IMG/VR virus record: IMGVR_UViG_2526164669_000023
Span: 1-49,435 of that record
Length of the DNA: 49,435 nucleotides
From: a virus
Lineage: Duplodnaviria; Heunggongvirae; Uroviricota; Caudoviricetes
Strand: one strand, 5' to 3'
Below, piece by piece: positions 6,672-43,963 of the stretch. The notes under the pieces were generated by a model. It was not told where the DNA came from. It was given only the letters and a program-made list of their open reading frames with translations, and made no database searches. The translations under genes and the position numbers were made by a program. Within the stretch, counting starts at the first letter, position 1. Each line of letters starts with the position of its first letter.

Positions 6672-7160
6672 ATGTTGGATGTATTTACTCCATTGTTGAA
6701 ACTTTTTGCTAACGAGCCACTCGAAAGACTTATGTATACGATTATCATTTTTGGTCTCACTCTCTGGCTGATACCGAAAGAGTTTACTGTCGCATTCAAT
6801 GCTTATACTGAAATACCTTGGCTCTTTCAGATTATCGTTTTTGCCTTTTCTTTCGTGGTCGCCATTTCCTTCTCAAGATTGCGAGCACATATTCAAAAGC
6901 ATTATTCATTACTACCAGAGCAACGAGTATTGCTTCGTTTATCTGAGAAAGAAATCGCTGTATTTAAAGATTTCCTTAAAACAGGAAATCTTATTATCAC
7001 TTCTCCTTGCCGTAACCCGGTTATGAAAAAATTAGAACGGAAGGGCATCATTCAACATCAGAGTGATAGCGCAAACTGTTCTTATTATCTCGTCACCGAA
7101 AAATACTCCCATTTTATGAAGTTATTCTGGAACAGCAGGAGTAGACGTTTTAATCGTTAG
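6672..7160 (+). CDS. sieB: Superinfection exclusion protein B
   Basis: 162 aa from internal Met MLDVFTPLLKLFANEPLER; membrane-protein-like N-terminus; opposite strand to the early leftward operon as in Rac. Confidence 0.8.
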   Translation: MLDVFTPLLKLFANEPLERLMYTIIIFGLTLWLIPKEFTVAFNAYTEIPWLFQIIVFAFSFVVAISFSRLRAHIQKHYSLLPEQRVLLRLSEKEIAVFKDFLKTGNLIITSPCRNPVMKKLERKGIIQHQSDSANCSYYLVTEKYSHFMKLFWNSRSRRFNR

Positions 7161-7619: not shown

Positions 7620-7680
7620 TGCTGGAACTATAGGTAATGCCTAATTGATTGTCAATAGGCTATGCCTAATGTTTTGAGCG
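7620..7680 (-). promoter_or_regulatory. Leftward early promoter (PL-like) with operator half of a 24-bp inverted repeat
   Basis: Minus strand shows TTGACA (7650-7655), 17-bp spacer, TATAGT (7627-7632); operator-like 24-mer at 7648-7671 is the near-perfect reverse complement of 8294-8317. Confidence 0.55.
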
Positions 7681-7765
7681 TAACCTAATAGGTGATGGCG
7701 ACAGCAGAAAGTGATGGGGGGGTTAAATAACGGAATCCAGGAGTTTTCCGTCAGACCATATAAGT

Positions 7766-10826: not shown

Positions 10827-11960
10827 ATGACTTGTCAAAGTATAATGAGAGATTGCATGAAGATTAACCATGAGGATTTAATTGATCTTATAAAGGCATC
10901 ACTGGATGCGAATTACAGCGAAGTTCGTAGTGTTAGTAATCGCATTGTTCGCGCAATTAGCGCTCAGGATGCTGACTTAGCAAAGCAAATTAAGTCTATC
11001 ATCCGTAAAAAAGGGGTACCATTACGTAGCTCTGGTTATACGGACAGTTTGCCCTTAGATCCGAAATCAAGGATGCCTTTAGTGGAAGAAGTCGAATGGC
11101 CTGCAACGCCTTTATTTCTTTCTGATGAATCACAGCATATTTTTCATGCTTTTATTCAGAATGTTATCCATCAGAATGAACTTATAGAGAATGGAATTCC
11201 AGGTAAATTGAATTTACTTCTTTCTGGTCCGCCAGGAACAGGTAAGACATTAGTCGCTGGTCATATCGCATCCAAATTAAACAAACCGCTCTATGTTGTT
11301 CGGCTTGACTCTGTTATTTCTTCTCTGTTAGGTGATACAGCGAAGAACCTAAGACAGATTTTTGACTTCGTCCCGACAAAAGATGGTGTGTTATTTCTTG
11401 ATGAAGTAGATGCGGTTGCTAAGCTTCGTGATGACAATCAGGAAGTTGGAGAGTTAAAAAGAGTTGTTAACACATTAATCCAAGGACTGGATTCTCTTGA
11501 TGATTCTGCTATTGTCATTGCTGCAACTAATCATTCGAAGCTATTGGATCCAGCAATTTGGAGACGTTTCCCATATAAAATTAGCTTTGGTTTGCCTGGA
11601 CAAGATGTCAGATGTGCTATGTGGGAACATTTTTTATTTAGAGATGATACGGATTCATTTCTAAGTAAAATGTTATCTATCATATCAACTGGGCTAACAG
11701 GTGCTGATATTGAAAATATCAGTTTATCTGCAAGAAGGCATAGTGTTTTATCTGGCAATGGACTGGATATACCATCTGTTGTTTATGCTATATTGAATAG
11801 CGTTGCAGATAGTACAGCAATTCCTTTTGGTAAGGATATAAATTCGAGTGTTAAGAAAAATTTAGCGAAGGAATTATCTAAGTTTAAATTATCACAGGCA
11901 GATATCGGTAGACTTTTAAATGTGAGCAGGCAAACTATATCAGGTTATTTCAAGGAATAA
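10827..11960 (+). CDS. Classical-clade AAA+ ATPase with C-terminal HTH (candidate defense ATPase, IetA-like)
   Basis: Walker A LLLSGPPGTGKT, Walker B VLFLDEVDA, sensor-1 IAATN, Arg-finger region LDPAIWRRFPY; C-terminal XRE-like HTH LSQADIGRLLNVSRQTISGYF. AT-rich relative to flanks. Alternative start at Met11 (10857). Confidence 0.75.
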   Translation: MTCQSIMRDCMKINHEDLIDLIKASLDANYSEVRSVSNRIVRAISAQDADLAKQIKSIIRKKGVPLRSSGYTDSLPLDPKSRMPLVEEVEWPATPLFLSDESQHIFHAFIQNVIHQNELIENGIPGKLNLLLSGPPGTGKTLVAGHIASKLNKPLYVVRLDSVISSLLGDTAKNLRQIFDFVPTKDGVLFLDEVDAVAKLRDDNQEVGELKRVVNTLIQGLDSLDDSAIVIAATNHSKLLDPAIWRRFPYKISFGLPGQDVRCAMWEHFLFRDDTDSFLSKMLSIISTGLTGADIENISLSARRHSVLSGNGLDIPSVVYAILNSVADSTAIPFGKDINSSVKKNLAKELSKFKLSQADIGRLLNVSRQTISGYFKE

Positions 11961-11962
11961 TT

Positions 11963-12538
11963 ATGGTCAGTGAAAATAAAGCTAAAATTTTAAACCCAAT
12001 AATTACTTTATTGAAGCCACCAACGCCAGAGGCGATTCCTGTTGGAGGGAAAAGTCGTAAAAATATTGTTGATTCACGGTTGAAACAACAGCGTGAAGTT
12101 TTATCCTCAGAGATAGATTCCATATTAAGAACAGAAGGTGAAATAGTTAAACATCGTGGTAAGTATCATATAGTAACAAGTATGTTTGAGGACTCATATG
12201 CACCATCGTTTATACCAGATTCATTATTCTGTCCCAGTGTTGAATGTAAGATAGTTGCACCAGCATACAATGGATATTTAATTGAGGTCAATAGCAATGC
12301 TTTATTGAAGTTGAAAAATAAAATTAATAATGCAAAAGCTATTACTGATCTTGTGGATATTTCAAGGGTTAGAAGTGTTAGTCTTTTTGATTCATCTTGT
12401 ACATTGCGAAATAGTAGCCTTGATTCGCTCTGGAATACAGTTAAGGCTTTGAATACATTTCAATTTAATATGTGGCTTATGCCTTTTTTTGATGAGCTTT
12501 CTAGAGAGTCTGTAGTTTCAACTTTTTTAAATTTTTAA
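11963..12538 (+). CDS. Hypothetical protein, middle gene of ATPase/protease cassette
   Basis: 191-aa ORF starting 3 nt after the ATPase stop; AT-rich; no motif I recognise. Confidence 0.55.
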   Translation: MVSENKAKILNPIITLLKPPTPEAIPVGGKSRKNIVDSRLKQQREVLSSEIDSILRTEGEIVKHRGKYHIVTSMFEDSYAPSFIPDSLFCPSVECKIVAPAYNGYLIEVNSNALLKLKNKINNAKAITDLVDISRVRSVSLFDSSCTLRNSSLDSLWNTVKALNTFQFNMWLMPFFDELSRESVVSTFLNF

Positions 12539-12741
12539 ATGATGGTATCATCGCTTTTGGTTATTCAGATTTTGACATAAAAACTATAAATCAAGATGCT
12601 GCTGTTGGCGGGGATAATATAGTCATAGTTCCACCGTTACTTATTGAAGCGATAAAAAAGTATCGTAAATCAGGTCAAGCATCCGTTACCGTCACTGTAG
12701 AGACTAAAGATAGTTTAAACAGGATACTGAATAGCAGTGCT

Positions 12742-14229
12742 GTGTATCGTATAGATCCTGTATCACCGCTAAACGTAACAGATACTCCTCCTGGTAATGG
12801 GGCTGAACCTGTTCCACCAATATTGGGGGATAAGAAAATGCCAACTGTAGTTGTAATTGATGGTGGGTGTAATGCGAAATCATATTCAAATTTAAATATA
12901 TATAAACTAAATCCGCTAATTCCAGATCATGATGCAGATTGTAAACATGGTAATAAAGTTGTATCGTTGTTATGTCACGGTTATGCTTGGAATAATAATT
13001 TAAACTTACCTAAATTGCAATGTAGCTATATAAGTGCACAGGCTATTGCGAAAAGGGGAGTGTTGAAACAACCAACTCCGGATCAATTTTTAAATTATTT
13101 AAGAATGGTTGCTGACAAAACGTCATCTATCGCCAAGGTCTGGAATCTTTCGTTTAATGAAGACGCTCCTCATTATAACTGTAATGAGATAAGTTATCTG
13201 GGACATAAAATCAGTTTGTTGGCTCGAGAATTTGGTATTCTGCCTGTAATATCTATCGGTAATGTTTCAAAGAACGAAAAACAAAAAAATCTTTGTCCGC
13301 CCGCAGATTGTGAGTCAGGAATTACAGTAAGTGGGAGAACGGCCAATCATGAAGGAATGCCTTCAGATGGCTGTCCTTTAAGTCGGAAAGGCCCTGCTCC
13401 TGCAGGAATGAAAAAACCTGAGTTATCATGGTTTTCTCGAGTTAGGGTGATAGGTGGAACAGTAGATATCGGAACAAGTTTTAGTGCTCCATTAGTTTCA
13501 TCTATTGCTGCTCATACCTTTTCGAATATTAAAAATGCCACTCCTGATTTGGTTAGGGCATTATTGATTAACAGGAGTGAGTTGCTTTCTCATGATGATG
13601 CATTAGGATGGGGGACTCCTTGGGATGGCGATTTACTGCCATGGTATTGTAAAGATGGCAGTGTCACATTAACGTGGATATCTAAGTTAAAGGCTGGGGC
13701 TGCTTATTATTGGAACGATCTTCCATTACCTCCAGAGATGTTAGTTAATGGTAAATTAGTTGGTGAGATATCTCTGACAGCTATACTAAAACCTAAGGTT
13801 TCTGAGTTCGGAAGTGAGAACTATTTTTCGACAAGGCTCCAATGTTCGTTACAGGCAATAAAAGAAATTAACGGAACGCTAAAAACAGAAAGCCTTCTTG
13901 GGTCAATGAAAGAATCTTCTGTTGATGAGCGTAAAGCTAGAAATGAACTTTCTAAATGGAGCCCTATTCGCCATCATGCAGAGTCGTTTAAGAGAAAAGA
14001 TATAACAGGGTGTAAAATTCGGCTTTATGCTAGGATATATGCTAGAGATTTGTATCAGTATGGGTTAAATAACCAACGGGAGCTTGAAGAGCAAGAGGTT
14101 TCCTTTGTTTTAACTTTTAAAAGTGTATCAGGATCGTCCTCAATATATACATCAATGGTTCAGCAACTTGGTGTTTATGTTGAAAGTGCTGTTATAGATA
14201 ATCACATTAACATAGATGTTAATAAGTGA
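12742..14229 (+). CDS. Subtilisin-like serine protease (peptidase S8) with C-terminal extension (IetS-like)
   Basis: D-H-S triad motifs in canonical order: VVVIDGGC, CKHGNKVV, GTSFSAPLVSSIAA; about 250 extra C-terminal residues. Track start is GTG; an ATG (MPTVVVIDGG) lies 32 codons downstream; in-frame stop at 12616. Confidence 0.75.
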   Translation: MYRIDPVSPLNVTDTPPGNGAEPVPPILGDKKMPTVVVIDGGCNAKSYSNLNIYKLNPLIPDHDADCKHGNKVVSLLCHGYAWNNNLNLPKLQCSYISAQAIAKRGVLKQPTPDQFLNYLRMVADKTSSIAKVWNLSFNEDAPHYNCNEISYLGHKISLLAREFGILPVISIGNVSKNEKQKNLCPPADCESGITVSGRTANHEGMPSDGCPLSRKGPAPAGMKKPELSWFSRVRVIGGTVDIGTSFSAPLVSSIAAHTFSNIKNATPDLVRALLINRSELLSHDDALGWGTPWDGDLLPWYCKDGSVTLTWISKLKAGAAYYWNDLPLPPEMLVNGKLVGEISLTAILKPKVSEFGSENYFSTRLQCSLQAIKEINGTLKTESLLGSMKESSVDERKARNELSKWSPIRHHAESFKRKDITGCKIRLYARIYARDLYQYGLNNQRELEEQEVSFVLTFKSVSGSSSIYTSMVQQLGVYVESAVIDNHINIDVNK

Positions 14230-14268: not shown

Positions 14269-14295
14269 TACCCGCTTCGGCGGGTTTTTGTTTTT
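14269..14295 (+). terminator. Rho-independent terminator after the cargo cassette
   Basis: CCCGC-TTCG-GCGGG hairpin followed by TTTTTGTTTTT. Confidence 0.7.
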
Positions 14296-14419
14296 ATTTT
14301 CAATACGTTTGAAGTTATGGACGATGCCGGAATAGAATCAAAAATACTTAAGTAGCGCGCAGGGAGAAGAGTGATGGACCCCGAAGGGGAAGAGCTATTT
14401 ATCTGGAAGGATTCTGAAG

Positions 14420-14593
14420 ATGAAAATCGAAGAATTGCGTGAAATTTTTAGTGAAAATGGCCTCTATGCTGTGCGCGTTGAGAATGGGAAAGTTGTCTAC
14501 ACAACGTTAATCCCTGATGATCATGTAATTTTATCTATCGAGGCATTCATTGAATACCTTGAAAGGCTCGGTTTCAAGGTGATTCGGGAATGA
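14420..14593 (+). CDS. Small hypothetical ORF (57 aa)
   Basis: Hand-read ORF MKIEELREIFSENGLYAVRVENGKVVYTTLIPDDHV... in the gap between the cassette terminator and the next gene; below track cutoff. Confidence 0.3.
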   Translation: MKIEELREIFSENGLYAVRVENGKVVYTTLIPDDHVILSIEAFIEYLERLGFKVIRE

Positions 14594-14659
14594 GTTATAA
14601 TTCGTAAGCCAGCCTGAACAACTGGCATCTGCTGCACTGCGCCATCGAGAGATTGAGAA

Positions 14660-15259
14660 ATGGCGCATATACAACTGGTCAAACAAACTTCTTCTGGTTT
14701 ACTTCTCCCGGCGACGCCGGAGAGTTGCGATTTTCTGCATCAAATCAAAATAGGTGAGTGGATACACGCAGACTTTAAGCGTGTGCGTAACTACGCATTC
14801 CACAAGCGTTTTTTCAAACTCCTGCAACTGGGATTCGATTACTGGACTCCGGTCGGTGGGGCGATCACGCCTCGCGAACGAGAACTGCTGTCTGGTTTCG
14901 TTGATTACCTGTGCGAATCAGTTGGTCGGGAACACACGCCAGCCCTGAGTGATGCCGCAGAGCAATATCTGAATACAGTTGCGACACGCAGAACCCGGGA
15001 TACGGCATTGCTAAAGTCGTTTGAGGCTTTTCGCGAGTGGGTAACCATTCAGGCTGGATTTTACACCGAACATTTTTATCCGGACGGTAGCCGTGGACGC
15101 CGGGCGAAATCCATCGCTTTTGCGAATATGGACGAAACCGAGTTTCAGCAGGTTTATAAATCTGTACTGAATGTGCTGTGGAACTGGATCCTGTTCCGTA
15201 AATTTTCCTCTCCGGAGGAAGTCGAAAATGTGGTCGCACAGTTACTGGAGTTTGCGTAA
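14660..15259 (+). CDS. Lambdoid NinR-region protein (DUF1367-like)
   Basis: 199-aa ORF; first of three tightly coupled genes ending in Q; family assignment by recall only. Confidence 0.5.
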   Translation: MAHIQLVKQTSSGLLLPATPESCDFLHQIKIGEWIHADFKRVRNYAFHKRFFKLLQLGFDYWTPVGGAITPRERELLSGFVDYLCESVGREHTPALSDAAEQYLNTVATRRTRDTALLKSFEAFREWVTIQAGFYTEHFYPDGSRGRRAKSIAFANMDETEFQQVYKSVLNVLWNWILFRKFSSPEEVENVVAQLLEFA

Positions 15260-15549
15260 TGGTGGATTTACGTAAAGCGGCGCGGGGGCAGATGTGCACC
15301 GTCAGAATTCCTGGCTACTGCAATCACAATCCCGAAACTTCTGTGCTGGCGCATTACCGACTGGCGGGGACGTGCGGAACAGCGACAAAACCACACGATA
15401 TGCAGGCAGCGATTGCCTGTAGATCGTGCCACGATTTAATCGACGGGCGGGTAAAAACCAGTGATTACACCAAAGAAGAATTACGCCTGATGCATGCAGA
15501 AGGTGTTTTTCGCACACAAGAAATCTGGAGAAAGGAGGGATATTTATGA
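15259..15549 (+). CDS. Lambdoid small Cys-rich protein (DUF1364 / YbcO-like)
   Basis: 96-aa ORF with Cys/His pairs (CTVRIPGYCNHN...CRSCHD); start overlaps the previous stop. Confidence 0.5.
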   Translation: MVDLRKAARGQMCTVRIPGYCNHNPETSVLAHYRLAGTCGTATKPHDMQAAIACRSCHDLIDGRVKTSDYTKEELRLMHAEGVFRTQEIWRKEGYL

Positions 15550-16088
15550 TTTACCCAACGAATACAGGAAAAAGCGGAGAACACCTTCGTCTCACTACGC
15601 TGGAAAGTGTCTGGATTCAGGGAAAACTACGTATGTGGGGGCGCTGGTCATATATTGGTGGTGGCAGGTCAGGAAATATGTTCAATCAGTTGTTGGCATC
15701 CAAAAAATTGACGAAAACAGCCATCAATGAAGCCCTGCGCAGAATGAAAAAAGCGGGAATAGAGAAACCTGAGCTGGAAGCGTTTTTGCGAGAGATGATC
15801 AATGGTAAGCAAAAGAGCTGGCTGGCGCATTGTACTGATGCAGAGGCGTTATGTATTGATCGGGTTATAAGTGAGGTGCTGGCAGAACATCCGGGATTGA
15901 TTAGCATCCTCCGACAACGGTATGAGGGGCGAGGAATGAGTAAGAGAAGGATGGCCGGGTTACTAAACGAACAGTATCCAGAGTGGTGTTTTAGCACATG
16001 CGAAAAGCGAATTGCTAATTGGTTGGCTGTTGCTGAGTGTGCGCTATACATTCCCATGCGAGAATCATTTGCTCAAAAAATGGCTTGA
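15546..16088 (+). CDS. Late-gene antitermination protein Q-like
   Basis: 180-aa ORF immediately upstream of a promoter-plus-short-terminated-leader arrangement; position between NinR-type genes and the lysis cassette. Confidence 0.6.
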   Translation: MIYPTNTGKSGEHLRLTTLESVWIQGKLRMWGRWSYIGGGRSGNMFNQLLASKKLTKTAINEALRRMKKAGIEKPELEAFLREMINGKQKSWLAHCTDAEALCIDRVISEVLAEHPGLISILRQRYEGRGMSKRRMAGLLNEQYPEWCFSTCEKRIANWLAVAECALYIPMRESFAQKMA

Positions 16089-16171
16089 TTTCTTACGCAT
16101 AAACTGCTTCAATTCCGATACGCTTCGCAAAGCTGTATCGCGTGGCGAATTAATCGCATGAACTTCACCAG

Positions 16172-16198
16172 AACCCGCCATTGAGCGGGTTTTGTTGT
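16172..16198 (+). terminator. tR'-like intrinsic terminator of the late leader
   Basis: CCCGC-CATTGA-GCGGG hairpin then TTTTGTTGTT, about 85 nt downstream of Q; candidate pR' (TTGATT, 17-bp spacer, TTCAAT) at about 16085-16113. Confidence 0.55.
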
Positions 16199-16541
16199 TA
16201 TGTTTAACCATCTACGGGAGAGCTGGCGCTCTACTGACTGGTATTTTGATAACGAAATCTTAAATATTTTATATTGTGATTGTTAGTTGTCTAAATTTTA
16301 TGTATGTTAAGCGGCACAGGATTCCTCCTGCGACGAAGTTTTAGTGGAATCATTATTTACTTTTCTTATGCCAGCCTTTCCTTGAGGTTGGTTTTTTTAT
16401 ACCTGAAAAAGCAGGTTGGTACGTTAAACTTTATGATGGCTATGCAATTTTAGTTTCTCCTTTCCTGAACCCTATTGACTACATGGAATTTTCTTTGTTA
16501 TGTAAAGCGAGTTAATGTTGTTAAGTTGTTAGAGGATGATT

Positions 16542-17255
16542 ATGAGTGACAGTACTCTGCTCAGGAATTCTTCACTTTTTGTTGCTTACATGGGGTGTCT
16601 TGGGTGGGGAAGTGCTTATTTCTATGGCTGGGGTACTTCCTTTTACTATGGCTTTCCATGGTGGGTTGTCGGGGCCGGTGTTGATGATGTGGCCAGAAGC
16701 CTGTTTTATGCTGTCACAGTTATCGTTATATTCTTGGCTGGATGGGGGATCGGTATTGTCTTCTTTCTGGGGATCAAACAAAAAAATAATATGAAGGATT
16801 TGAGTGCTGTCAGGCTTTTTCTTGCGATATTGTTGCTTTTTGTTCCTCCGGCTCTGGAGTTTTCGGTAATTCATCAGCACTTTGTGCCAGATGCATTGGT
16901 TTTATGCGCTATTGTGGCATTAATAATTACCATGTTCGTCAGAACGGGCAGGAAGTTTATTTACGTTAAATGTATTTCTGAAGTGTCTTTTATTCGGCAT
17001 CACAAGATTGAGTGTGTTATGGCCGGATTCATGCTCTATTTCTGGTTGTTTTCGCTTATTGCTGGATGGTACAAACCTCAGTTTAAGAAGGAGTATCAGA
17101 CACTTCACTATGAGAGCGTTTGGTATTACGTTCTTGCTCGCTATGGTGATCGCTTGGTTTTATCAAAATCGTACAGGCACGGTAGTACGAATTTCGTTAT
17201 ACTTAATAGCGCACATACAGATGAATTTGAAATTAATATAGTCAAAGTGCGCTAA
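16542..17255 (+). CDS. Multi-pass membrane protein (moron, unknown function)
   Basis: About 237-aa ORF, AT-rich, aromatic/Gly-rich hydrophobic segments (GWGSAYFYGWGTSFYYGFPWWVVGAG...); RBS AGAGGA upstream of the second ATG. Confidence 0.6.
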   Translation: MSDSTLLRNSSLFVAYMGCLGWGSAYFYGWGTSFYYGFPWWVVGAGVDDVARSLFYAVTVIVIFLAGWGIGIVFFLGIKQKNNMKDLSAVRLFLAILLLFVPPALEFSVIHQHFVPDALVLCAIVALIITMFVRTGRKFIYVKCISEVSFIRHHKIECVMAGFMLYFWLFSLIAGWYKPQFKKEYQTLHYESVWYYVLARYGDRLVLSKSYRHGSTNFVILNSAHTDEFEINIVKVR

Positions 17256-17395
17256 AACATTATGAGTAACCGGGATATAGACTTTTCTGCTTGTTGTTCA
17301 GATATTTTTACTTGATTGTAGCTGACATACAAGATTTAAACGGTTGTGTTGGGTGGATTACAGCGCTAAACTGATTCAGTCAATATTTTTCAATC

Positions 17396-17471
17396 GGCCC
17401 TTTAGCTCAGTGGTGAGAGCGAGCGACTCATAATCGCCTGGTCGCTGGTTCAAATCCAGCAAGGGCCACCA
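17396..17471 (+). tRNA. tRNA with CAU anticodon (Ile2/Met type, ileZ-like)
   Basis: 76 nt; acceptor GGCCCTT/AAGGGCC, anticodon loop CTCATAA, T-arm GCTGG-TTCAAAT-CCAGC, 3' CCA. Confidence 0.8.
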
Positions 17472-17473
17472 TT

Positions 17474-17550
17474 CCGCCACTAGCTCATCGGGATAGAGCA
17501 TCAACCTTCTAAGTTGATTGTGCGAGGTTCGAGTCCTCGGTGGCGGACCA
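17474..17550 (+). tRNA. tRNA-Arg (anticodon UCU)
   Basis: 77 nt; acceptor CCGCCAC/GTGGCGG, anticodon loop CTTCTAA, T-arm CGAGG-TTCGAGT-CCTCG, 3' CCA. Confidence 0.8.
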
Positions 17551-18034
17551 TTCCATGCAAGTTTAGCTGGCAGCGCTATTAGCTCGGCGTAATAGGGCTA
17601 TTCGTTAGGCTCTGTTAGTTCACCATATTTCGTCAAAACTTTTCTTTTCAACGCTACAGTTAACGTTAATCATTACAAAAACTACTGCTGATGTAAGTCT
17701 TGTGAACTGTTATTTCTGAAGAGCTTACTGTGATTTATTGCGACAACGGAGTTAGCGTACTCCCAATTTGTTCATTTTTATGTTGTTTTTTTTCACAATT
17801 TCCTGTGAGAAATCAGAAGTCTGGATGAAATAATGCAAAATGGCATCTGAATCGATCGCAGTTTGGCATTCGAATCGATCATGATTTGGCATCCATCTCC
17901 GATCACAGTTTGGCATCACAATCGATCACGATTTGGCATACTTCCGATCATTGATTGGCATTCGCCAGTCACTCCGGGAATTAACTCTTTTCACCACAGT
18001 CTCCATTGCCGTGTTTAAACCAGTGGAGACGTCA

Positions 18035-19600
18035 ATGTCCAAAAAGAGAAAATCCAGGAGCACTATGGAAACTTGTTTTAAGATCCTTCAGCTCAAGTTC
18101 GATAAGAAGCTGACTAACCGTTGTATCGGACTGACGTTACACATCAGCGCCTCAACCGTTTTTGAGGTTCTTGCCCGCTTCAAAGCCTCTTCTCTGTCAT
18201 GGCCATTACCTGCTGATATATCCCATGACACGCTGGAGAAACTCATTTTCCCGCCCAAAGACACCTCTGCGTCAGAGCTTGTTATGCCTGACATGCTGTA
18301 CTTCGATACGGAAATGAGAAAACCTGGCGTGACGCGCCAACTGTTGTGGATGGAATACAAGGCACAGGCGGGTGACAAAGCGATGGGATACTCACACTTC
18401 TGCCGTTGCTACCGGAAGTGGAAAAAAACGCGACGCCTCTCCATGCGACAGGAGCATCGTGCTGGCGAAAAGCTCTTTATCGACTTCTGTGGTCCTACGC
18501 TTCCTGTTATTAATCCGGACACCGGAGAGATACGCCGCGTGGCAATCTTCGTGGCTGTAATGGGGGCGTCCAACTATACCTATGTTGAAGCGTGCGAAGG
18601 TCAGGACATGATGTCATGGTTAAATGCCCACAGCCGTTGCCTGACCTTCCTGGGCGGCGTACCGAAGCTGCTCATCCCCGATAACCTCAGAAGCGCAGTG
18701 AAAAAAGCCGATCGCTATGAGCCTGTCATCAACGACAGTTATCAGGCGCTGGCTGAGCACTATGGCACGGTTATTATCCCGGCCCGCCCGCGCAAACCTA
18801 AAGATAAACCAAAAGCAGAAAACGGCGTCCTCATCGTCGAGCGATGGCTTCTTGCCCGCATCCGTAATGAAACCTTCCACACGCTCAGGGCGCTGAATGC
18901 ACGCCTTCGGGAGTTGCTGACGGACATGAATAACCGACCAATGAAGGGATACGGTAATCAAACCCGCGCAGAACGCTTCCGCATGCTGGATGCACCAGCA
19001 CTCTCTCCGCTGCCTCTGGAGCCTTATGAATACACGGAATACAAAGCCGTGAAGGTTGGCCCTGACTACCACGTTGAATATGCCCGTCACTGGTACTCCG
19101 TTCCACACGAACTGGTCGGTCAGCGTCTGTCACTGAAGGTGGGGCAGTCGGTGGTACAGCTCTGGCACAAGGGGCAGTGTGTGGCGCAACATCCGCGCAG
19201 CACACATGAATATAAACACACAACCAATCCGCTTCACATGCCAGAACGCCACCGGCGGCATGGGACATGGACACCGGAACGCCTTATCGAGCAGGGAAAC
19301 CGTACAGGTCCGTCCACAGGCCGGGTGGTTGAATCCATGCTGAAAGCCAAACCCCATCCGGAGCTGGCTTACCGTGCAGTCCTGGGTCTGCTGGCACTTC
19401 AGAAAAAATACGGCCCGGAACGGCTGGAAAAGGCCTGTTACGTTGCCCTGCACTATAACGCCCCGGACAGACGCTTTATCGACAATCTGCTGCGTCATCA
19501 TCGGGATAACGTTGAGCTTCCGTTATCCCGCCAGGGCGAACAACATCCGGCATATGCTTCAGAGCATGAAAACCTGCGTGGTCCTGGCTACTACCACTGA
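18035..19600 (+). CDS. istA: IS21-family transposase IstA
   Basis: 521 aa from MSKKRKSRSTMETCF; N-terminal HTH and DDE-type core; followed by an IstB ATPase. Confidence 0.8.
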   Translation: MSKKRKSRSTMETCFKILQLKFDKKLTNRCIGLTLHISASTVFEVLARFKASSLSWPLPADISHDTLEKLIFPPKDTSASELVMPDMLYFDTEMRKPGVTRQLLWMEYKAQAGDKAMGYSHFCRCYRKWKKTRRLSMRQEHRAGEKLFIDFCGPTLPVINPDTGEIRRVAIFVAVMGASNYTYVEACEGQDMMSWLNAHSRCLTFLGGVPKLLIPDNLRSAVKKADRYEPVINDSYQALAEHYGTVIIPARPRKPKDKPKAENGVLIVERWLLARIRNETFHTLRALNARLRELLTDMNNRPMKGYGNQTRAERFRMLDAPALSPLPLEPYEYTEYKAVKVGPDYHVEYARHWYSVPHELVGQRLSLKVGQSVVQLWHKGQCVAQHPRSTHEYKHTTNPLHMPERHRRHGTWTPERLIEQGNRTGPSTGRVVESMLKAKPHPELAYRAVLGLLALQKKYGPERLEKACYVALHYNAPDRRFIDNLLRHHRDNVELPLSRQGEQHPAYASEHENLRGPGYYH

Positions 19601-19616
19601 CAGAAGGAACAACCGT

Positions 19617-20372
19617 ATGAGTGATAATCTGTTAAACAAACTGACCCAACTGAAACTCCCGGCGATGGCCGGGAGCCTGATACGGCAACGGGAAACGCCT
19701 CAGACTTACGACGAACTGTCGTTCGAGGAAAGGCTGACACTGCTGGTTGATGACGAGCTTCTGAGCAGAGAAAACAGTCGTGTGGCACGGTTGAGAAAAA
19801 ATGCCTGCCTGAAATATCAGGCAACACCGGAAGGGCTGCGTTATCCGGCCTCAAGAGGTCTGCGGGCTGAACAGATGAGGGAACTGCTGAACGGCCACTA
19901 CATAATCCACAGGAAAAACCTACTGATAACCGGTCCGACAGGATGCGGTAAGAGCTGGATAGCCAATGCGCTGGGCGAACAGGCATGTCGACAGAAATAC
20001 AGCGTCCGGTACTGTAGAACCGGGCGATTACTGGAACAGTTGGCTCAGGGACGTGTTGATGGCAGTTGGCTGAAATATCTGAAACAGTTGCAAAAAATAC
20101 AGGTTCTAATCCTGGACGATCTGGGGCTGGAACAGTTAAGTAACGCCCAGTGTAATGACCTTCTGGAGATCACAGAGGATCGTTACGGACAAAGCAGCAC
20201 GATAGTGGTAAGCCAGTTCCCGGTAGATAAATGGCATGGTCTGATGGAGAACCCAACAACAGCAGATGCCATCCTGGACAGACTGGTACATAACTCACAC
20301 AGAGTGGTCCTTCAGGGAGAGTCCCTGAGGAAAAATCCCCCGACAGTGGAAAGCAGCGAAAAAACGAGTTAA
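19617..20372 (+). CDS. istB: IS21-family helper ATPase IstB
   Basis: 251 aa from MSDNLLNKLTQLKLPAMAG; Walker A GPTGCGKSWIANAL, Walker B VLILDDLG. Confidence 0.8.
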   Translation: MSDNLLNKLTQLKLPAMAGSLIRQRETPQTYDELSFEERLTLLVDDELLSRENSRVARLRKNACLKYQATPEGLRYPASRGLRAEQMRELLNGHYIIHRKNLLITGPTGCGKSWIANALGEQACRQKYSVRYCRTGRLLEQLAQGRVDGSWLKYLKQLQKIQVLILDDLGLEQLSNAQCNDLLEITEDRYGQSSTIVVSQFPVDKWHGLMENPTTADAILDRLVHNSHRVVLQGESLRKNPPTVESSEKTS

Positions 20373-21147
20373 AAAGCGGTAGAAAAAGTTAAGTTCCCGG
20401 TTGATCGAATGGATGCGAATCGCTGATCGAACTTCGATGCCAATCCGTGATCGAATAGAGCGGAATACGCAAATAACGTAAATTGTATGCGTATGATACA
20501 TATTTATACATATATTTAAATATGAAAACTAATTAGTTTTTGATGTCATATAAATTATCGGTAATATTACTCCCGACCCGAAAGGCAGCAAGTTTCTGTT
20601 CACAGGGGTGTTACCCGCTGTCTTGCGGGTCATTGCAGGCATCCGTTTAATCATAATGAAGGGCTGTTATCAGTATCAGTGTCATTATTGTGGTTACGGA
20701 GGCCTGCTCTATGTGCAGGTATCGTATAGTGGTTATTACATCAGCCTTAGGTTGGTAATGCCGGTTCGATTCCTGTTCTCCGCAACTTCATTGTTTTTTG
20801 GACAAGTTTTTACAGCACTGGCGGTTTTCGTGAGGAACAGATCTCTTTAATACCTTTATCGTCCCTCATTCTGTAATGGAGATCGGTTACAGACTCAGTG
20901 CTGTATTTTTTATGACACAGAAATGGCGCATTGCCCACGAAAGGAAGCAGGATTTAGCGTGGAGTAACCAGTGATGCGCCATCTCTGTGTCGGAAAACAT
21001 GAATTGGGGCGTTCCTCAGTGCGAGGGTGGTTTATAGAGTCGGTTTAGCGGGAAACCACAGTATCCACGTAAAGTGGAATACTTCGGGAGGCACCCGATG
21101 CCCCAAACCCAATAATCATTATAATATTGTGTCCTTTTATCGTTTTA

Positions 21148-21316
21148 GCCGCCGCCCCGGGCGGTTTTTTTATTCAGTTTTTTATGGCTCGCTCCGGCGG
21201 GCCTTTTTCATATCCGCGCCACGCCCGGCGCACATCACATCAGATAACACCACACAAAAGGCATCTGCGGGTGCCTTTGACAGGGTGTTTTTACGGGCCG
21301 CTGGTGGCCCTTTTTT
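21148..21316 (+). terminator. Cluster of three to four tandem intrinsic terminators upstream of the lysis cassette
   Basis: Hairpin plus T-run units at about 21148-21172, 21186-21208, 21259-21279 (weak) and 21292-21316. Confidence 0.5.
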
Positions 21317-21335: not shown

Positions 21336-21728
21336 ATGTCTGAACCCTTATCCGGTTCCGGTACGGCTGCGGCGCTCGGTGGGGCGACGGTATTTGGACT
21401 GTTTACCGGAACGGATTTCGGGATTGTGTTTGGTGCATTCGCCGGGGCGTTGTTTGTGGCGACGATACCCCAGCAGATTTCTGTCTGGCGTGTGGCGGCG
21501 CATTTTCTGGTGTCGTTTATCGTTGGCGTGCTGGGGGCGGATGTCATGGCGTCTTATCTGGTCGAAAAACTGGGGCTACACAGCACATCTCTCGACGCGC
21601 TTTGCGCGGTACTGGTATCGGTGATTTCGGTGAAGATTCTGTCGTTCATCCACCAGCAGGATATTGCATCACTGGTATCCGGCCTGTTCTCCCGCCTGCG
21701 GGATGGAGGAGGCGGCAATGTCAGGTAA
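21336..21728 (+). CDS. Holin (putative)
   Basis: 130-aa small protein with Gly/Ala-rich hydrophobic segments; RBS GGGAGGAA; first gene of the lysis cassette. Confidence 0.6.
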   Translation: MSEPLSGSGTAAALGGATVFGLFTGTDFGIVFGAFAGALFVATIPQQISVWRVAAHFLVSFIVGVLGADVMASYLVEKLGLHSTSLDALCAVLVSVISVKILSFIHQQDIASLVSGLFSRLRDGGGGNVR

Positions 21729-21993
21729 CCTTCCCGGATTGCTGAATGTGGCGTTATGCACGGTTATCGTACTGACGCTCTTTTTTTACCGTCGTCGTGA
21801 TTCCAGACATAAACCGCTGATGTCATGGCTGGCCTGGCTGTTGATGCTGCTTTATGCCTTTGCGCCACTCAGCTATCTGTGTGGTCGTCCGTTAGCAATG
21901 GGCTGGCTGGAAGTGTTTTTTAATCTGTTGTTCTGCGTGCTGGTAATACGCGCACGCGGGAACGTCACAAAAATCTTTCCATTGTTGAGGTGA
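21718..21993 (+). CDS. Second small lysis membrane protein (holin/antiholin-like)
   Basis: About 91 aa from MSGNLPGLLNVALCTVIVLTLFFY; two hydrophobic segments; overlaps the holin stop; RBS GGAGGAGG. Confidence 0.5.
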   Translation: MSGNLPGLLNVALCTVIVLTLFFYRRRDSRHKPLMSWLAWLLMLLYAFAPLSYLCGRPLAMGWLEVFFNLLFCVLVIRARGNVTKIFPLLR

Positions 21994-21995
21994 AT

Positions 21996-22373
21996 ATGTC
22001 GGGTAAATTCAGATTCAGCCGTCGCAGTGAAAAAAATCTGGAGGGCGTCAAACCACAGCTGGTTGCTGTCGTTCGCCGTGCGCTGGAGCTGACGGAGGTT
22101 GATTTCGGTATTACGGAAGGCCTGCGCAGTAAGTATCGCCAGAAACAGCTGGTTGCAGAAGGCAAGAGCCAGACCATGAACAGCCGCCACCTGACAGGTG
22201 ATGCGGTGGATGTTGTTGCCTACATTGGTAGCCAGGTGTCATGGGACTGGCCTCTGTACGAGAAAATCGCGCAGGCATTTAAGCAGGCTGCCGCAGAGCT
22301 GGGAACTGCCATCGAATGGGGCGGGGACTGGAAAACACTGAAAGACGGACCTCACTTTCAGTTGAAACGCTGA
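21996..22373 (+). CDS. Endolysin, peptidase M15-like (L-alanyl-D-glutamate peptidase type)
   Basis: About 125-aa ORF following the holin genes; motifs SRHLTGDAVDV and WGGDW fit my recollection of M15 endolysins; start 21990 (GTG) or 21996 (ATG). Confidence 0.6.
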   Translation: MSGKFRFSRRSEKNLEGVKPQLVAVVRRALELTEVDFGITEGLRSKYRQKQLVAEGKSQTMNSRHLTGDAVDVVAYIGSQVSWDWPLYEKIAQAFKQAAAELGTAIEWGGDWKTLKDGPHFQLKR

Positions 22374-42802: not shown

Positions 42803-43963
42803 ATGGAAAATTTTGCAAATAAGTTAAAAATACACACAGAGCATGTTGCAAAAATGGGGGTGTTTTGTACAACTGAAGAAACGACAAAACAAGCACTCAT
42901 TATGCCATTACTAGATATTCTTGGTTTTACTCCGTATGATCCAAGAAAAGTCAAAGCTGAGTATAGTGCTGACTTCCCCGGGGTTAAGGCTAATGAACGG
43001 GTTGATTACGCTTTATTTTGTCATGATGTTCCTGTGATGTTCATTGAGGCGAAATCGTTTTCAGAACAAATTGATAATCACTGCCCACAGCTATCAAGAT
43101 ATTTTAATTCAACACCGGAAGTTACTATATCAGCCATTACAAATGGTGTTGAATGGCGTTTTTTTACGGATTTGAAACAAAAAAACATAATGGATTCAAC
43201 GCCGTTTTTAAAAATAAGAATGGATTCTCTAACTCACTCCGATATTACACAATTATTTCGTTTTCGTTATGATAAATTCAAACCAGAGGCTTTACGGACA
43301 CTGGCTGAAGAAAGTGTTTATTTGAATTCATTTACTAAAACAATCAGTTCTAGTCTTCGTGAAGTTGATCTGGAGTTTGTTCGATATGTTGCTAGTCGTT
43401 CAAATATTGAGAGACAACTTAATCAGAGATTTCTTGAGTTCGTGACTCCATTAGTTAAACAGGCCGTTGAGCGCGCTGTTAGCGCAATGGTGGTTTCCGG
43501 GCTATCTACACAACCGGTAGAGCAAACTAAAGAAAATGATGCAACGGATACACAAGTTAATAACGCCATTGTTGATGAAGAAAACCCCAACATAATAACC
43601 ACAGCCAAAGAATTGGAGCTATTTGAAAGGGTAAAACAAATCATACAAACAGAAGATAATATAGAATATAAAGATACTGAGTCATATTTTGGTGTACTAT
43701 TGAATGGTAAAACTAATAGATGGCTGTTAAGATTTTATGATAAAAAATCTTCATTTATAACTTTACCTATTTCGCTTAGTGAAGTTCAGTTGAATGAAAT
43801 AAGACGAGCTCGACTTGATACGGATGGTAAAAGGATACATATAACTAATCCGGAAGATATACTTCGCATATCTGGTTTGATTCTGGATTCATACGAGTAT
43901 GTTAAAAATGATGATAATTTCCGCCGAGGGTCCAGAGCGAGCAGTTTAGAAGAGGTTGAATAA
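42803..43963 (+). CDS. PD-(D/E)xK nuclease-fold protein, HsdR N-terminal-like domain (moron; candidate defense gene)
   Basis: About 386-aa ORF; motif ERVDYALFCHDVPVMFIEAKSF (D...E-A-K); AT-rich, own RBS GGAGGAG, promoter-like AT-rich upstream region with TTGACA at about 42745, own terminator. Confidence 0.65.
   Translation: MENFANKLKIHTEHVAKMGVFCTTEETTKQALIMPLLDILGFTPYDPRKVKAEYSADFPGVKANERVDYALFCHDVPVMFIEAKSFSEQIDNHCPQLSRYFNSTPEVTISAITNGVEWRFFTDLKQKNIMDSTPFLKIRMDSLTHSDITQLFRFRYDKFKPEALRTLAEESVYLNSFTKTISSSLREVDLEFVRYVASRSNIERQLNQRFLEFVTPLVKQAVERAVSAMVVSGLSTQPVEQTKENDATDTQVNNAIVDEENPNIITTAKELELFERVKQIIQTEDNIEYKDTESYFGVLLNGKTNRWLLRFYDKKSSFITLPISLSEVQLNEIRRARLDTDGKRIHITNPEDILRISGLILDSYEYVKNDDNFRRGSRASSLEEVE

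Follow-up and report, generated by a model that had tools for sequence, protein, structure and literature searches.

Insertion sequences (IS) of the IS21 family have terminal inverted repeats (TIRs) that consist of repeated units with CA at the end, and the related IS5376 makes 5-bp target duplications in vitro (PMC10122671). Insertions of IS elements into the late regions of prophages are well documented. In Stx2a phages of the Sakai type (PST1-1), for instance, IS629 lies downstream of stx2 and phage DNA is recovered after ciprofloxacin induction (PMC4587872). Here, an IS21-family element was analysed in 49,435 nucleotides of caudoviral DNA (IMG/VR record IMGVR_UViG_2526164669_000023, positions 1 to 49,435), the whole of which is referred to below as the window. 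The element is a full-length and apparently functional copy of ISSso4 in the late leader of a lambdoid prophage. At a probability of roughly 0.72, the locus as a whole is explained by a simple transposition of ISSso4 into the non-coding late leader with weak or absent polarity. ISSso4 is a catalogued element and its insertion an ordinary event of already known biology.

Identity, ends and genes of the element

Megablast of window positions 17560-20900 against 5426 complete E. coli genomes was utilized in order to delimit the element. A total of 1919 records were matched, almost all of them at query positions 275-2912, which correspond to window 17834-20471. These are the limits at which similarity to other copies stops in roughly 1900 E. 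coli records and 517 plasmids. The 517 records of the plasmid collection, with S. sonnei, E. coli and E. albertii plasmids on top, showed the same limits at 99.7-99.9% identity. Matching genes in the E. coli records are annotated as "IS21-like element ISSso4 family" and RefSeq names both window genes likewise. Under the usual ISfinder criterion an isoform shares at least 95% nucleotide identity with the reference element over its full length. The window element is 99.735% identical to the copy on pSS_046 of S. sonnei Ss046 over 2638/2638 nt without gaps and is thus ISSso4. The 7 nucleotide differences between the two alter IstA at 3 residues and IstB at 1, and introduce neither frameshifts nor stops. 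The element ends are the same in 4 full-length copies used for comparison, while the right end is rearranged in a fifth (CE0026f). An earlier note on this DNA had placed an intact IS21-family element at 17830-20450; the element does lie there, but the left end given was out by 4 bp and the right end fell short by about 21 bp. The features of the element are as follows.

17834..20471, + strand: complete ISSso4 (IS21 family), 2638 bp, with ends 5'-TGCAAAATGG...GGAATACGCA-3'
18065..19600, + strand: istA, DDE transposase, 511 aa (NCBIfam NF033546, 285.8 bits, cut-off 160)
19617..20372, + strand: istB, AAA+ helper ATPase, 251 aa (NF038214, 252 bits, cut-off 200; PF01695 IstB_IS21, 203 bits)
17834..17964, + strand: left terminal inverted repeat region, five direct CGATCN5TTGGCAT copies at 17853, 17876, 17900, 17923 and 17945
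20413..20471, - strand: right terminal inverted repeat, two motif copies (20413-20429 and 20437-20453) and terminal CA
17829..17833, no strand: left target-site duplication AATAA, 5 bp, from comparison with empty sites
20472..20476, no strand: right target-site duplication AATAA, 5 bp, from comparison with empty sites

The open reading frame (ORF) map of the element holds two long + strand ORFs, 17933-19600 and 19374-20372, which trimmed to the RefSeq starts are istA and istB. As is characteristic of the IS21 family, istA is followed by istB on the same strand, 16 nt apart and with no internal stops. IstA is RefSeq WP_000447017.1 and carries no pseudogene flag. It contains the Pfam domain PF22483 Mu-transpos_C_2 (71 bits) and a match to rve that at 31.5 bits is slightly below the cut-off of 32.6, and its residues D140, D206 and E252 align with catalytic D124/D187/E233 of IS5376 IstA (PDB 8b4h, 8q4d; residue numbers from PMC10122671). 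IstB has the Walker A motif GPTGCGKS, and its accession, WP_001282649.1, is common to copies in E. coli PapRG-04-4 and E. albertii. Full-length istA and istB, with family-model scores above the cut-offs, bear out that the element is intact.

The ends are likewise of the IS21 type, with TG...CA termini and multi-repeat TIRs. The motif CGATCNNNNNTTGGCAT occurs in 5 direct copies at 17853-17961 and in 2 inverted copies at 20413-20453, confirming the multi-repeat ends described previously; including one stray match outside the IS, there are 8 matches against 0.26 expected by chance. By analogy with the IS21 family, the end repeats are presumed to be IstA binding sites (PMC10122671). An outward-facing -35 as in IS21 was not seen in the right end on inspection by eye. 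The AATAA duplication is perfect at ISSso4 and single in empty sites, in line with the short duplications (4-8 bp, typically 5) expected of the family; those of other ISSso4 copies span 5, 6, 7 and 7 bp.

The empty site and the toxin slot

The empty site was reconstructed by joining the flanks with one AATAA kept, and the resulting 919 nt were searched anew. The whole reconstruction was present, uninterrupted and at 98.9% identity, in 4 E. coli genomes (RM11911, RM13745, RM13752 and VG48B2). A further 7 E. coli genomes matched 96-99% of it at roughly 85% identity, one of the seven being interrupted by IS1. On comparison with RM11911, window 14270-17833 and 20471-21211 abut with a 6-nt overlap made up of AATAA and one coincidental A, and the empty site reads GGATGAAATAAC with a single AATAA. 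A scan of metagenomes with the 27-nt left flank returned 2 food-metagenome contigs, both in the empty configuration. The left flank was not found in the GTDB representative genomes, megablast of the IS with its flanks gave no match in the phage collection, and a search for distant similarity to the empty site returned short tRNA-cassette matches only. Comparison with related prophages that lack the IS, as had been proposed beforehand, therefore defined both the empty site and AATAA as the target-site duplication.

Since the empty site is seamless in relatives and the 5-bp duplication is perfect, this is a simple insertion into intergenic DNA that neither removed nor replaced anything and carried nothing else in. 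Because the occupied site was seen in only 1 of the 5426 E. coli genomes, the insertion is strain-specific and probably recent. Given intact genes and ends, a perfect target duplication and a strain-specific location, the copy appears to be competent for transposition. By the mechanism of the family, the DDE transposase IstA, bound to the repeated end sequences, would have acted with the AAA+ target-capture ATPase IstB to cut the target with a 5-bp stagger that left AATAA duplicated. Phage DNA was neither lost nor brought in by this one simple transposition, the sole structural consequence being a late leader longer by 2.64 kb.

Over the 40.9 kb compared, the window matches E. coli OkiPb01675, a strain from bovine faeces in Okinawa, in its chromosomal sequence except for a 1-base indel. 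It belongs to a lambdoid prophage of about 51 kb at the ttcA (Rac) site; the window begins at the integrase and the prophage ends near uspF. The gene order is intR, xisR, recET, racR, ydaSTUV, an IetA/IetS pair, ninB-like, ybcO-like and a DUF1133 Q-like gene, after which follow a membrane-protein ORF, tRNA(CAU), tRNA-Arg(UCU), the IS, two holins and an M15 endolysin, and beyond this the terminase, head, tail and baseplate genes. In the annotation, from int to the tail fibres, none of the late genes is flagged as a pseudogene. The landmarks around the insertion are listed below.

15546..16088, + strand: Q-like late antiterminator (DUF1133; PF06576, 353 bits; PF06530 Phage_antitermQ, 28.6 bits, cut-off 26)
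17396-17471 and 17474-17550, + strand: tRNA with CAU anticodon (annotated tRNA-Ile) and tRNA-Arg(UCU), a pair that precedes stx in Stx phages
21336..22373, + strand: lysis cassette, with holin 21336-21728, second holin 21718-21993 and M15 endolysin 21996-22373

The Q assignment also draws on a match to phrog_753, "anti-termination protein Q-like", and on 92.6% identical phage records annotated as Q. ISSso4 begins 283 bp past tRNA-Arg and ends 864 bp ahead of the holin gene. The order given in the earlier note, with the IS downstream of the Q-like gene and the tRNAs and upstream of the holin, all on the + strand, is accordingly correct. That note had also equated this interval with the toxin position of converting phages, which is upheld by homology of the tRNA pair and by the gene order of Rac-SA53. 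With tRNA-Ile/tRNA-Arg of phages 2851 and Nil2 the window tRNA pair shares 91.8% identity, and it corresponds to the first two tRNAs in the phage 2851 order of Q, tRNA-Ile, tRNA-Arg, tRNA-Arg, stx2c and S. Rac-SA53 has the order Q, eplBA (pertussis-like toxin genes), holin1 and holin, with the same Q family and holin pair as the window. The Q-to-holin interval hence fits a lambdoid late-operon cargo (moron) slot, the window itself having no toxin gene.

A slot that holds stx2c in phage 2851 and eplBA in Rac-SA53 could in principle have lost such genes to the IS, and it had been suggested that the insertion replaced or mobilised cargo. Former cargo, be it a toxin or other moron genes, would on this account have been replaced, deleted or mobilised, and relatives do carry about 680 bp of extra DNA, a tRNA-Gly cassette, further downstream. 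The perfect 5-bp duplication and the uninterrupted site in 4 genomes and 2 metagenome contigs, six independent sequences in which the empty site is seamless, nevertheless refute the suggestion. The tRNA-Gly cassette gap, moreover, begins about 740 bp past the IS end and is bounded by 67-nt direct repeats. Involvement of cargo is thus highly improbable, and simple insertion, with no toxin or other cargo involved, is retained.

In relatives without the IS, the cassette of about 680 bp holds an intact tRNA-Gly(UCC) between two 67-nt direct repeats with twin terminators each. The repeat copies lie at 6954-7020 and 7633-7699 of RM11911, and a single hybrid copy lies in the window at 21145-21211. 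IS-linked loss of the cassette was rejected on the account of this hybrid repeat, roughly 740 bp from the IS. As the window copy is a hybrid of both repeats, the cassette looks to have been lost by repeat recombination, unrelated to the IS, rather than by IS-mediated adjacent deletion. A degenerate tRNA-like sequence at 20715-20784 (+), which scores 31.8 bits with the Rfam tRNA model (gathering score 29) and received no ARAGORN call, is a paralogue, now diverged, of the tRNA-Gly that the relatives have in the neighbouring cassette. The AT-rich motif GATACATAT(T/G)TATACATAT stands ahead of both cassettes, with the IS about 25 bp upstream of the motif.

Further observations concern other parts of the prophage. 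An ORF at 16536-17255 (+), between Q and the tRNAs, encodes a low-GC multi-pass membrane protein of 239 aa (phrog_1521); related DNA occurs in phages 434 and 2B8 at about 75-76% identity, and the ORF looks like a late-leader moron. IetA (AAA ATPase) and IetS (S8 peptidase), at 10857-11960 and 11963-14229 (+), form an anti-phage defence pair (PADLOC 333.6 and 220 bits) that is placed between the replication genes and the nin region. Positions 12532-12536 are five T in the window against six in RefSeq NZ_AP042478.1, the sole difference over the 40.9 kb. The five-T run frameshifts IetS in the window, the ORF restarting at 12742, and the difference could stem from homopolymer sequencing or from the version of the record, or else be a phase-type frameshift that is real. 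Finally, a "type I restriction endonuclease" gene lies amid the baseplate and tail genes at about 42803-43963 (+) (record 1686381-1687541).

Late transcription across the insertion

The effect of the insertion on late genes was evaluated from the terminators of the leader. On the + strand, the native leader has T-tract hairpins at 16169-16194 and at 16370-16392, in addition to the following cluster.

21147..21316, + strand: intrinsic terminator cluster directly upstream of the holin gene, with terminators at 21147-21166, 21186-21203 and 21295-21310 that have T tracts, and a hairpin at about 21258-21279

Terminator-like sites in the whole leader number 13, where 5.7 are expected. Inside the IS, the terminator scan returned one weak + strand hairpin, at 18265-18277 and without a T tract, and no strong intrinsic terminator on that strand. 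Q-modified polymerase is able to pass intrinsic terminators as well as Rho-dependent ones (PMC4914094). Since the native leader holds 4-5 intrinsic terminators, late expression would already depend on a termination-resistant elongation complex. We infer that late transcripts, initiated downstream of Q, traverse the IS in the sense direction, and that polarity on the lysis and morphogenesis genes is weak or absent, as would be expected of transcripts that are already termination-resistant in order to pass the native terminators. Judged from sequence, weak or no polarity is the probable outcome.

The earlier note had instead raised the prospect of a polar insertion. Late transcription to the holin, endolysin and morphogenesis genes would then be blocked or much diminished, and the prophage locked in, defective in lysis and particle formation, its genes intact. 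The IS does place 2.64 kb of foreign DNA in a single late transcription unit, with 231 nt untranslated before istA, and processivity of a DUF1133-type Q over a leader of about 5 kb is an assumption. Against this, the 4-5 native intrinsic terminators already need read-through, the scan found no strong sense-strand terminator in the IS, Q complexes withstand intrinsic and Rho-dependent terminators (PMC4914094), and Stx2a phages with IS629 in the late region are still induced (PMC4587872). As Q bypasses terminators, the leader has 4-5 of them and the IS adds none comparable on the sense strand, strong polarity is considered unlikely, with some real weight left to it.

Several points weigh against transposition with little or no polarity. 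The Q of this prophage belongs to the DUF1133 type, a type for which antitermination is presumed. The promoter and the qut site are ambiguous, there being two candidate pR' sites, both upstream of the IS. The first, TTGATT-17-TTCAAT at 16086-16114, is followed by the hairpin at 16169-16194, and its start, TTGATT(T)CTTACGCA, is conserved directly after the Q stop in Rac-SA53. The second, TTGATA-18-TATATT at 16246-16275, is associated with the terminator at 16370-16392; promoter-like matches in the scan are at the level of chance. Should antitermination be incomplete, Rho could be loaded within the 231 nt at the left end of the IS that are untranslated. The extra 2.6 kb might affect packaging. 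The IS629 precedent is also imperfect: that element interrupts the gene of a predicted phage protein, and where it lies with respect to the lysis genes is unstated (PMC4587872), so that its site may not be equivalent to the ISSso4 site. OkiPb01675 and its IS-free relatives RM11911, which retains Q, and VG48B2, in which the Q gene is reduced to a fragment, would make a natural pair for following polymerase under a DUF1133-type Q through 2.6 kb of foreign DNA.

Expression of the element, its donor and known systems

Transposition into the leader with weak polarity is compatible with a regulatory side effect, which would add to it. Read-through driven by Q, or a promoter at the junction, would raise expression of istA/istB and thereby couple transposition to induction. 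The position of istAB on the late strand speaks for this, as does the finding that the own promoter of IS21 is weak and that stronger upstream promoters, as in tandem junctions, raise transposition (PMC10122671). The left junction, TG-A-AATAA/T (slash at the boundary), resembles an extended -10 that exists only with the IS, the empty site reading AATAAC. On the other hand, promoter-like matches are about as frequent as chance predicts (8 against 7.0 expected), many insertion sequences are shielded from transcription that enters from outside, and the single chromosomal ISSso4 copy gives no sign of a transposition burst. A side effect of this kind is consequently held to be rather improbable. 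In the left junction region, 17805-17834 (+), TG-A-AATAAT, with GTGAGA 18 nt upstream of it, is directed into istA; this extended -10-like motif could add constitutive istAB expression. Doubtful, too, is the notion of ISSso4 as an induction-coupled hitchhiker, its transposition being switched on when the prophage is induced, as the late unit in which it lies fires only upon induction and Q renders it termination-proof. If true, the transposase would be expressed when many phage genome copies serve as targets and vehicles.

No ISSso4 was found in the first 50 kb of plasmid pOkiPb01675_1. At 17500-18694 of this F-type plasmid, a truncated colicin M immunity gene adjoins a site-specific integrase gene. 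ISSso4 lies between homologues of these two genes in E. albertii pEA25_2, and IS1A is found there in pOkiPb01675_1. The presence of IS1A at the colicin M immunity/integrase site hints at a former plasmid-borne ISSso4 donor.

Past annotation the insertion matters little, being a further case of strain-specific IS insertion into a prophage. It does provide a clean occupied/empty pair for ISSso4, with target AATAA and a 5-bp duplication. Among known systems, IS5376/IS21 and the window element share the istA-istB operon, the DDE triad, terminal CA, multi-repeat TIRs and a 5-bp duplication (PMC10122671). The window ISSso4 is, however, about 500 bp longer than IS5376, with an IstA of 511 rather than about 400 aa and five left-end repeats rather than two; the proteins are distantly similar (E = 1e-13), and the right-end -35 element of IS21 is not evident. 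IS629 in Stx2a prophages (Sakai Sp5-type, PST1-1) is alike in being an IS in a lambdoid late region, downstream of Q, tRNAs and toxin genes, but it belongs to the IS3 family, resides in another phage and splits a predicted phage protein gene, whereas the window ISSso4 is intergenic. Closest are the ISSso4 copies on pSS_046 and on F-type plasmids of E. coli and E. albertii, which have the same 2638 bp and termini at 99.7-99.9% identity. From these known copies the window copy differs in location only, which is chromosomal and in the late leader of a prophage.

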